Shown here in pieces: positions 33,271-37,005 of a DNA stretch of 64,000 nucleotides. Below the pieces are notes generated by a model. It saw only the letters and a program-made list of their open reading frames with translations, was not told where the DNA came from and made no database searches. A program made the position numbers and the translations under genes. Origin of the DNA: Clostridia bacterium (GTDB lineage Bacteria > Bacillota > Clostridia > Oscillospirales > Acutalibacteraceae); assembly GCA_017397845.1 (NCBI GenBank), contig JAFQHU010000011.1, positions 5,666 through 69,665 on the forward strand, given 5' to 3'. Each line of letters starts with the position of its first letter. Within the stretch, counting starts at the first letter, position 1.

Positions 33271-36200
33271 ATGAACAGTGTTTTTGAGGAACTGTTCGGA
33301 CCTTTTAATTCAAAGGAAATAAGTGAAAGGTTCGCAGAATGTAAAATAGAAAACGTTGCAATTTCCATGGAGAAAAAGTTGGTCGAAATCAAAGCTTTCT
33401 TTCCGTGTCTTGTTACGGATAAAATTATAGAAGAAGCTCAGTCGGATTTGGCAAATCGTCTGGGCGTTGCTTCGGTGTCAATAAAACCACGTATGCCTTC
33501 CGAATGCTTTTCTGAGGGCTATTTTGCCACCCTTATAAGAGAGACAAACTCAGCTCTTGCCGCCACTAACGGTTTTTTTGAGGACAGCAAGGGCTCCTTT
33601 GACGGGACAACTCTTTTTGTGGAGCTTTCCCACGGCGGTGCTTCCATACTTGAAGGTGTCGGAGCAGGGGAATATATATCAAAGCTTATCGGTGAACGCT
33701 TCGGCAGAAAAGTAGACGTTCAGTTCACGGGCATTAGAGAGCTGCAGATAAGCGACGAAGAAATTGCCTCTTTCCACAGAAAAGCCGAAGAGGAAAATCT
33801 TCGTGCCAAGGGCATTGACCCCGCCGAATATATGACTCCGAAGCCGAAAGAGCATAAAATTGTAGAGGGTATTCCTCTTTATCTTGAAACAGTTAAGCCC
33901 ATCTACGGAAATAAGATCACAAAAAATCCAAAACCGCTTAATGAAATCTCTGTTGAAGACGGCTCATGTGTGGTATGGGGCGACGTTTTCGGCTTTGACA
34001 GCAGAGAGACCAGAGACGGCAGAAGCTACATAATAACCTTTAACATTACAGATAACACCTACGCCTATACCTGTAAGGTTTTTGAAAGAAAGGAAAACTG
34101 TGATGCCATTATGGCGAAGGTAAAGGACGGCGTTACTCTTATGATAAGAGGCGACCTTGCCTTCGATAAATTTTCGGGTGAAAATGTGATCTCCCCCCGT
34201 GCCATCTGTCTCGTGGATAAGATACAGAAAGAGGATAATGCAGAAGAAAAAAGAGTTGAGCTTCATCTTCACACCAAAATGTCCATGATGGACGGTATGA
34301 CGGATGCATCGGTTCTTGTAAAAAGAGCAATTGCATGGGGTCACAAAGCTATTGCCATAACCGACCACGGTGTCGTTCAGGCTTACCCCGAAGCTGTTTC
34401 CGCCGCAGGAGGAAAGATAAAAATCATCTACGGTATGGAAGGCTATTTTATGGATGACACGGACATAAGCTTTGAGGATTGGAAAAAGGCAAAGAATAAA
34501 TATTTCCATCAGATAATTTTAGCAAGAAATCTCACAGGTCTTAAAAATCTTTATAAGCTTATTACCAAATCAAATCTCGAATACTTCCATCGCAGACCCA
34601 TAATTCCGAAAAGCGAGCTCATAAAGCACAGAGAGGGCCTTATTATAGGCAGTGCCTGTGAGGCAGGTGAATTGTACCGTGCCATCGTTGAGGGTAAAAG
34701 CGATGAAGAAATACTTAAAATCGCATCTTTTTATGATTATTTGGAGATTCAGCCCTGCGGTAATAATGAATATATGATAAGAAGTGAAAAATTTCCTCAC
34801 GTAAATTCCGTGGAGGATATAAGAAACTTCAACCGTAAGGTGATTCATGTGGCGGATGCTGTGGGCAAGCCCGTAGTTGCCACATGTGATGTACACTTTA
34901 TCGATCCTGAGGATGCACGCTACAGAGCAATTCTCATGGCGGGTCAGGGCTTCTCCGATGCAGATATGCAAGCTCCGCTTTTCTTCCGAAACACAGATGA
35001 AATGCTCTCTGAATTCGACTATCTCGGTGAAGATACGGCAAAGGAGATCGTTATAACAAATCCTAATATGATTGCCGATATGGTTGAAAAAATCATACCG
35101 ATTCCCAGCGGTAACTATCCTCCATCACTTGAGGGTGCTGATGACGAGCTTACCCGTCTTTGTTGGGATAAGGCAAAAAGTCTTTTCGGCGATCCTGTTC
35201 CCGAATATGTGGCAAAAAGACTCGACAAAGAGCTTACTTCCATCATCAAGCACGGCTTCGGCGTTCTTTATATGATTGCTCAGAAGCTTGTTAAAAACTC
35301 CGAAGAACACGGCTACCACGTAGGCTCACGAGGCTCTGTCGGCTCCTCATATGTTGCCAACGCTTCAGGTATTTCAGAGGTTAATCCTCTTGCACCTCAT
35401 TACCGCTGTCCGAACTGTAAATGGTCGGAATTTTTCCTCAAGGGTGAGGTTGGTTCAGGCTATGACCTTCCCAAAAAGAACTGTCCCGAATGCGGTACGG
35501 ATCTTATCCGTGACGGACACGACATTCCCTTTGAAACCTTCCTTGGCTTCAAGGGCGATAAAAGCCCTGATATTGACCTTAATTTCTCAGGTGAATATCA
35601 GTCGAGAGCGCATCGCTATACAGAAACTCTTTTCGGTGACGGTCACGTTTTCAAAGCGGGAACCATCGCTTCTGTTGCCGATAAAACCGCTTACGGCTAT
35701 GTTAAAAAGTATCTGCAGGAAAGAGATATTGTGGTCAGCCGTGCCGAAGAGGATCGACTTACCCGTGGCTGTACGGGAGTAAAAAGAACCACAGGCCAGC
35801 ATCCGGGAGGCATGGTTGTTGTTCCCGATTGCTTTGATGCTGCGGATTTCACCCCTATTCAGCATCCTGCCGACGACTCAAAGAGTGATACAAGAACCAC
35901 TCACTTCGACTTCCATGCACTTCATGATACCATTCTGAAGCTTGATAATCTGGGTCATGATGTTCCTTCACTTTATAAACATCTTGAGGACCTGACAGGT
36001 ATCCCTGTTATGGAAACGGACATTTGTGACCCGAAGGTTTATGAGCTTATTCTTTCACCGGCACCTCTTAATGTTACTCCCGAAGATATCGATTGCCCCA
36101 CAGGTACTCTTTCCATTCCTGAAATGGGTACACCGTTTGTTATCCAGATGCTGTTGGATGCGAAACCCCGTAATTTCTCCGAGCTTTTGCAGATATCAGG

Positions 36201-37005
36201 TCTTTCACACGGTACGGGAGTATGGCTCGGAAATGCTCAGGACCTTATTAAAGAGGGTACGTGTACCATTGCAAATGTTATCGGTACGCGTGATAATATT
36301 ATGGTTTACCTTATGCATAAGGGTGTTGAGCCGAGCATGGCTTTCAAAATTATGGAAATCGTTCGAAAGGGTAAGGCAACCAAGCTTCTCACCGATGAAC
36401 ATAAGCAGGCTATGAAGGACAACGGTGTAGAGCAGTGGTATATAGACTCCTGCATGAAAATTCAGTACATGTTCCCGAAAGCTCACGCTGCCGCTTATGT
36501 CAGTGCAGCATTGCGGCTCGGTTGGTACAAAATATATTATCCGCTTGAATATTATGCTGCATTTATGACAGTACGAGGCGGAGATATCGAAGCGGTTACC
36601 GTGCTGAAGGGCAGAGATGCCGTCAGAAGACGTATGGCGGAAATAAAGGCAAAAGGCAAGGATGCTCAGCCGAAAGAGCTCAACATGTATCCTTCACTTC
36701 AGGTGGTCAACGAAATGATGGCACGAGGAATTGAGTTCTTACCCATCGATATTTATAAATCCGATGCCACAGTTTACCGCATAGAGGACGGGAAAATCCG
36801 TATGCCCTTCGGTGCCATGGCAGGTGTAGGCGAAAATGCCGCCATAGCTTTGGCCAAAGCGAGAGAGGGTGTAGCGGAATTTGTCTCGATTGATGATTTT
36901 GCTCAAAAGGCATCGGCATCCTCAGCGGTAATAGAGGCACTCCGTCAGGTAGGAGCCTTCGGCGATTTGCCGGAAACGAGACAAATGAGCTTATTTGATA
37001 TGTAA
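33271..37005 (+). CDS. polC: DNA polymerase III PolC-type, apparently lacking the DEDDh 3'-5' exonuclease insertion
   Basis: PolC architecture is present: N-terminal domains, OB region, PHP ([25 protein letters not shown]), palm with Zn module (CPNC...CPEC), [19 protein letters not shown]. It is 1244 aa, and GMEGYFMDD is followed after about 20 aa by [19 protein letters not shown], with no DxE...HxxxD exonuclease block. Confidence 0.9.
   Translation: [1244 protein letters not shown]

Follow-up and report, generated by a model that had tools for sequence, protein, structure and literature searches.

PolC, the target of a new antibiotic class (ibezapolstat), is the replicase that textbooks describe as having its DEDDh proofreader built in. 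The proofreading exonuclease (Exo) is not universal among PolCs: Timinskas et al. (NAR 2014, PMC3919608) found 6% of them to be without the Exo insertion, all in Clostridia and Negativicutes save for one extra PolC copy in Thermotogae. Clostridia and Negativicutes always pair PolC with DnaE1, and the PHP domain was discussed in that work as a possible proofreader. In the rows of its supplementary table that were compared here, the Acidaminococcus examples, Exo-less PolCs consist of an N-terminal domain (NTD) followed by OB, PHP, Pol3 and HhH domains, with the PHP motif HHDHEHCDH and a C-terminal QxxLF. We analysed a stretch of 64,000 nucleotides (the window) from an uncultured gut bacterium of the Acutalibacteraceae (order Oscillospirales in GTDB; assembly GCA_017397845.1, contig JAFQHU010000011.1), in which an open reading frame (ORF) at 33271-37005(+), open over 1,244 codons, encodes a PolC of 1,244 aa that belongs to this variant. 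It shares with those rows the architecture, the pairing with DnaE1, all nine residues of the PHP motif (9/9), the C-terminal QxxLF and the origin in an anaerobic Firmicute taxon, while its lineage lies outside the 2013 genome set. It also has the traits that define the Exo-less subgroup, being a PolC-group enzyme from Clostridia that contains no Exo and is paired with a DnaE whose PHP site is intact. The original prediction had made the novelty of this architecture depend on its not having been catalogued before; the same table already lists it, motif included, and the window PolC is a new example of a variant known since 2013, with no difference in kind.

The window protein is a full-length member of the NCBIfam PolC equivalog NF001688 (1444.7 bits, cut-off 873) and also exceeds the cut-off of TIGR01405 (1321.2 bits, cut-off 1043). 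The NF001688 match is split in two: its second stretch places residues 406-1243 on model positions 609-1445, and ~190 model positions (about 416-608) are skipped. A Pfam search of the 1,244-aa protein detected PHP (330-488), DNA_pol3_alpha, finger and HHH_6 in the expected order, with no match to RNase_T (PF00929) even at E<=1. We aligned the window PolC with 40 PolCs from genomes of its order, giving 41 sequences of which 21 carry Exo. These 21 proteins (1,425-1,478 aa) contain ~190-200 extra residues exactly between the positions of E390 (GMEGY) and H413 (YFHQI) of the window PolC (nt 34438-34509), which has a linker of only 22 residues there. Pfam, the NF001688 profile and the order-wide alignment thus bear out the first reading of the sequence as a 1,244-aa PolC without a DEDDh exonuclease, in which the N-terminal part of PHP joins the C-terminal part directly and the size gap from canonical PolC fits. 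That reading had also stated that neither DxE nor HxxxxD motifs occur in the ORF. The latter part holds, as H-x4-D occurs zero times; six D-x-E tripeptides are present, all by chance and none in an exonuclease context, and the conclusion is unaffected.

The cryo-EM structure of Enterococcus faecium PolC puts Exo between PHP strands 3 and 4 (PMC12592400). The deletion site of the window PolC coincides with this position and is no more than a few residues from that of the engineered Exo deletion in the 3F2B crystal construct (Geobacillus kaustophilus PolC), which the natural deletion mimics. 3F2B is the best sequence match and best solved relative of the window PolC, aligned over query residues 223-1243, and also the best fold match to its structure model (Foldseek; TM 0.71/0.73, ~49% identity over the structural alignment). 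The model has a mean pLDDT of 78 and a confident PHP domain, and it contributed little over sequence. Compared with canonical PolCs (Bacillus subtilis, G. kaustophilus 3F2B and E. faecium 9QPC), the window enzyme has the same Zn module, catalytic Asp residues, domain order and gene neighbourhood, but is without the ~200-residue Exo between PHP strands 3 and 4. It further differs in the eighth PHP ligand, which is Asp in the window PolC (CDVHF) and Asn in G. kaustophilus (GNVHY). We show that its PHP barrel is back to a compact, DnaE-like topology.

The linker in place of Exo, delimited by alignment with the 21 Exo-bearing PolCs, spans the 22 residues G391-F412 (34441..34506, + strand). It is conserved inside the clade of the window PolC (DDTxxSFEDWKKxKNKYFH), where F401, W404, K405 and K406 are maintained, and is modelled as a short helix over residues 401-407 (pLDDT ~79-87). 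The spacing it leaves between E and H is almost equal to that in the DnaE1 of the same genome. Linkers replacing Exo measure 5-30 residues and are unrelated between Exo-less lineages. Within the window linker, the tetrapeptide DISF (398-401, nt 34462-34473) aligns with an F-I-S-F-D located ahead of the ExoI D-x-E in the nearest relative that bears Exo. It may be a relic of the N-terminal edge of the Exo deletion, or it may be due to chance; it is absent as a conserved feature from the sister Exo-less lineages, and the resemblance is suggestive yet inseparable from chance.

The PHP halves on either side of the linker hold a complete set of metal ligands. The N-terminal half (34246..34440, + strand), located by the Pfam PHP match, contributes H332, H334, D341, H366 and E390, and the C-terminal half (34507..35130, + strand), placed by ligand alignments, contributes H413, C463, D540 and H542, together HHDHEHCDH. 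These are the same residues that had been proposed from the letters alone to fill the nine ligand positions, and the alignment confirms them. They match one-to-one the nine ligands of the DnaE1 encoded in the same genome. None of the 41 PolCs in the order alignment, whether they carry Exo or not, departs from these ligands, and of 196 Exo-less homologues, with identities as low as 53%, all but one (195) retain the motif. Over these 196 homologues, mean conservation is 0.87 for the N-terminal and 0.81 for the C-terminal PHP half, against 0.86 for the polymerase core.

Thermus DnaE proofreads via its PHP domain. Intact PHP sites also proofread in Mycobacterium tuberculosis DnaE1 (PMC5636811). 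For PolC, a C669Y substitution in the Exo-bearing enzyme of Clostridium thermocellum, a member of the Clostridia, results in a ~30-fold hypermutator (bioRxiv 10.1101/2021.07.30.454558), and C463 of the window PolC is the counterpart of this cysteine. The window enzyme resembles the PHP-proofreading DnaE1 proteins of M. tuberculosis and Thermus in its nine-residue PHP site, in its short connection between strands 3 and 4 and, as far as draft genomes go, in having no conserved epsilon partner in its genus; unlike them, it is PolC-type and not DnaE-type. Because the ligands are invariant, PHP proofreading has these precedents and C669Y yields a hypermutator, we propose with moderate confidence that 3'-5' proofreading is carried out by the PHP site of PolC itself, with the DnaE1 PHP and mismatch repair as back-ups and no DEDDh proofreader. 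According to this proposal, the DnaQ-like DEDDh module that is looped out between PHP strands 3 and 4 in canonical PolC would have been excised in this lineage, leaving a compact DnaE-like PHP closed by the 22-residue helical linker. The other replicase parts, namely the OB fold, Zn module, catalytic aspartates, HhH and C-terminal QxxLF, are intact. PolC would act beside DnaE1, itself equipped with a complete PHP site, and the metal-dependent PHP nuclease site of PolC would proofread in the 3'-5' direction as it does in the two DnaE enzymes. The DnaE1 PHP and MutS-dependent mismatch repair would serve as back-ups, a DEDDh proofreader being uninvolved.

We surveyed 151 genomes of the order and found Exo-less PolCs in 21 of them: 6 of the 8 genomes of the family to which the window genome belongs, 7/7 in family f2, 3/7 in f19 and 5/5 in f27. 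When the Exo columns are left out, the PolC tree agrees with the taxonomic families and requires at least 4-5 changes of Exo state. DEDDh residues are intact in all 21 embedded Exo domains. Given that the Exo insert is the ground state of PolC and that 21/21 embedded copies are intact, these changes are best explained as losses and not gains, and the tree points to Exo having been lost at least four separate times within the order. A single origin of all Exo-less PolCs was rejected by an AU test (delta lnL 645, p-AU 4e-42), in which the tested group was named after the tree was seen; a single loss inside the family of the window genome was not rejected. In family f5 (G004, G034, G060, G101 and G120; 95-100% complete), the genomes encode a DnaE-type polymerase of ~1,180-1,200 aa, and neither a PolC (5/5 genomes tested) nor a PolC-Exo-like sequence was found. 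In one of them, G101, PF07733 gives a second match, to a 1,053-aa ORF, that is weaker. A single order thus includes genomes with an Exo-bearing PolC, genomes with an Exo-less PolC and genomes with DnaE alone. Short PolCs also occur in family f17 (G046, G092, G111 and G144), where the PolC ORFs are only ~1,215-1,254 aa long, keep an embedded Exo and match the PolC profile weakly (E ~1e-150, model ~34-912); PolC appears to have been reduced or to have diverged here in a different way.

On another view, the window gene would be a product of misassembly, a truncated or decaying copy or a paralogue, and the intact polC would lie elsewhere. The sole basis for such a suspicion is that the host genome (2.31 Mb, 97.3% complete) is a draft of 26 contigs. 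It encodes one PolC and one DnaE (1,155 aa, motif HHDHEHCDH), and no second polC was found in it; a fourth, sub-threshold PF07733 match (L004), considered and rejected, lies in a sigma-factor-like ORF and is a chance match. By its intact PHP motif and a rule from the literature, the DnaE is assigned to DnaE1 and not DnaE3, an assignment made from sequence. An identical PolC is present on 6 contigs in public data. The best 120 database relatives are all ~1,240-1,260 aa long and without PF00929 (61-98% identity over the searched residues 250-650), and the Exo-less architecture is common to ~196 homologues at 53-96% identity. In addition, 80 species-level genome loci from independent assemblies, mostly metagenome-assembled genomes (MAGs) that bear the labels Acutalibacteraceae, Oscillospiraceae, Ruminococcaceae or Clostridia and come from the guts of animals and humans, match residues 1-1244 without a gap. 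Upstream of polC, NCBIfam equivalogs identify dxr (29692-30837, + strand), rseP (30896-32185, + strand) and ispG (32196-33257, + strand), and the order dxr-rseP-ispG-polC is the canonical polC neighbourhood. In 39 of 40 loci from this order, Exo-less and Exo-bearing alike, the sequence encoding the C-terminus of IspG immediately precedes polC, which makes the window gene the positional orthologue of canonical polC. With its catalytic motifs all intact as well, the artefact or truncated copy that the original prediction had named as a concern is excluded, and we give next to no credence to a second, intact polC elsewhere. By all sequence criteria applied, the window gene is a genuine, orthologous and, as predicted from its motifs, functional polC.

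A different explanation leaves PolC without any proofreading role: DnaE1 would be the main replicase or would edit PolC errors in trans, the role of PolC would be reduced and mismatch repair would cover the rest. The DnaE1 of the host genome has the full HHDHEHCDH motif, MutS and MutS2 are both present, and Exo has been lost repeatedly. Moreover, family f5 carries on with DnaE alone, which indicates that PolC is dispensable in this order, and the same possibility was raised by Timinskas et al. for Clostridia with PolC and DnaE1 (PMC3919608). However, the core, the clamp motif and the PHP ligands are strongly constrained over 196 homologues, unlike those of a decaying accessory enzyme, and the PolC ligands would have no reason to be invariant if the DnaE1 site alone mattered. 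We regard an absence of editing by PolC as unlikely but as the main rival to proofreading by its PHP site, since it explains the invariance of the PolC ligands less well. Several observations nevertheless weigh against PHP proofreading by PolC. To our knowledge, neither PHP proofreading nor a PHP exonuclease has ever been shown biochemically for a PolC-type enzyme. The 21 Exo-bearing PolCs show the same invariance at the nine ligands, so this conservation is no response to the loss of Exo; a structural metal site or some other function could account for it. When the four Exo-less lineages were searched for convergent compensatory substitutions, one weak column emerged outside the deletion, I117, a result that fits Exo as an autonomous, tethered module. 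The genomes are draft MAGs, in which the absence of a gene is not absolute, and other Exo-less lineages may have solved proofreading in trans.

This last solution, proofreading by a separate, epsilon-like DEDDh exonuclease, had been offered by the original prediction as an alternative to PHP, together with a search for stand-alone dnaQ-like genes. One such gene exists in the host genome: a KapD-like ORF of 209 aa at G000:C12:99332-99958(-) (L005:1387-2016), the only RNase_T-domain gene there, with intact DEDDh motifs (DLE ... HDALVD; PF00929 E 1.8e-18). It is about as similar to the PolC Exo region as to KapD and adjoins a gene for a transglutaminase-core protein. In a six-frame, full-sensitivity search of the host genome with an HMM built from PolC Exo domains of the same order, it was retrieved at E 2.7e-17 and the next match had E 0.49; no other PolC-Exo-like sequence was found in the assembly by this search, and PF01612 had no match in the genome. 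Among 40 congeners, a single one has an orthologue of the KapD-like protein; across the order, 3 of 150 genomes do, and those three have an Exo-bearing PolC. Neither a clamp motif nor an alpha-binding motif is evident in the protein. On this patchy distribution we rejected it as a lineage-specific partner of PolC; the gene is probably accessory. Furthermore, no RNase_T domain was detected in 26 of the 41 genomes of the genus, four of which are 95-98% complete and encode a PolC of 1,244-1,255 aa plus DnaE. The patchy KapD-like gene and these RNase_T-free genomes make a dedicated trans-acting proofreader of the DnaQ type unlikely in the genus and leave PHP, which, from the gene content of these genomes, is the only conserved proofreading candidate there.

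Elsewhere in the order, proofreading in trans may be the solution. Exo-less genomes of f2 (7/7) and f19-g24 (3/3), as well as G068, encode stand-alone DEDDh proteins (~175-200 aa, motifs intact) that share 37-43% identity with PolC-embedded Exo and lie on contigs other than that of polC (L046-L051 and L056-L061; e.g. G113:C43:4946-5467 and G001:C9:18314-18790). They are candidate epsilon-like trans proofreaders. This ~180-aa family was not found in the host genome (G000), in four other Exo-less genomes of its family (G013, G042, G125 and G141) or in f27 (0/5). We also considered whether these proteins arose by gene fission of Exo. When 21 embedded and 22 stand-alone domains were placed in one tree with the KapD-like ORF as root, the stand-alone proteins sit on long branches, some of them grouping with stand-alone proteins of Exo-bearing genomes, and those of f2, f19 and G068 are not nested in the embedded Exo of their own families. 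This position outside their own families' Exo indicates paralogues rather than recent fissions, although an old fission followed by fast evolution could still lie behind them. For the window PolC, proofreading in trans by the KapD-like protein or a similar DEDDh exonuclease appears improbable.

The remaining parts of the window PolC are those of a complete replicase. The NTD (residues 1-220; 33271..33930, + strand) matches PF14480 DNA_pol3_a_NI weakly (E 0.052, residues 5-65) and is poorly conserved, with a mean column conservation of 0.50 over the 196 homologues. An OB-fold domain (~residues 221-325; 33931..34245, + strand), aligned to 3F2B residues 10-109, lies N-terminal to PHP and is modelled as a beta-barrel (pLDDT 84-91) with OB-fold matches by Foldseek. 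PF07733 and PF17657 matches delimit the polymerase core with its palm, thumb and fingers (35131..36720, + strand), which contains the catalytic residues D767, D769 and D892 and a Zn module of C713/C716/C738/C741; a Zn-ribbon-like match covers residues 735-749. Core motifs, including KLDNLGHD, align with their 3F2B equivalents, and the catalytic and Zn residues are invariant across the aligned PolCs. Close to the C-terminus, a sliding-clamp-binding-type motif (QxxLF) was read from the sequence as QMSLF (residues 1238-1242; 36982..36996, + strand), and Q[IM]SLF is conserved there across the 196 homologues. Downstream of polC, the window encodes a 239-aa glycerophosphodiester phosphodiesterase-like ORF. 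It precedes a 637-aa ORF at 37853-39766(+), ~850 nt downstream of polC, whose sole match is DUF6020 (E 1e-44), and the next gene is of AglJ-like glycosyltransferase type (39750-40712).

A 2026 survey has mapped PHP and DnaQ proofreaders over bacteria, with Clostridia usually having three apparently active ones (PMC12926913). What is new here is that Exo was lost at least four times within one order, that its family f5 is free of PolC, and that stand-alone DEDDh proteins occur in some Exo-less lineages while none is conserved in the genus of the window genome. A 2025 survey of PolC and ibezapolstat susceptibility chose its PolCs by the RNase_T insertion in PHP (PMC11963600). Surveys defined in this way silently omit the Exo-less PolCs of abundant gut commensals, an omission that matters for predicting which commensals are spared by a PolC-targeting drug. 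Natural Exo-less PolCs also probe whether the PHP site of PolC works as a proofreader, a question that dates from 2013 and for which the support in vivo is indirect, coming from the C669Y hypermutator of C. thermocellum. Most genomes of the genus are without any DEDDh exonuclease, which makes it a clean test case. We see about an even chance that it represents a natural Firmicute replisome devoid of a DEDDh exonuclease, in which an Exo-less PolC and DnaE1 rely solely on metal-dependent proofreading of the PHP type. If so, the PHP site of PolC would be a real proofreader, and the repeated loss of Exo, together with the loss of PolC in one family, would mean that an active PHP site in PolC makes the DnaQ module redundant.

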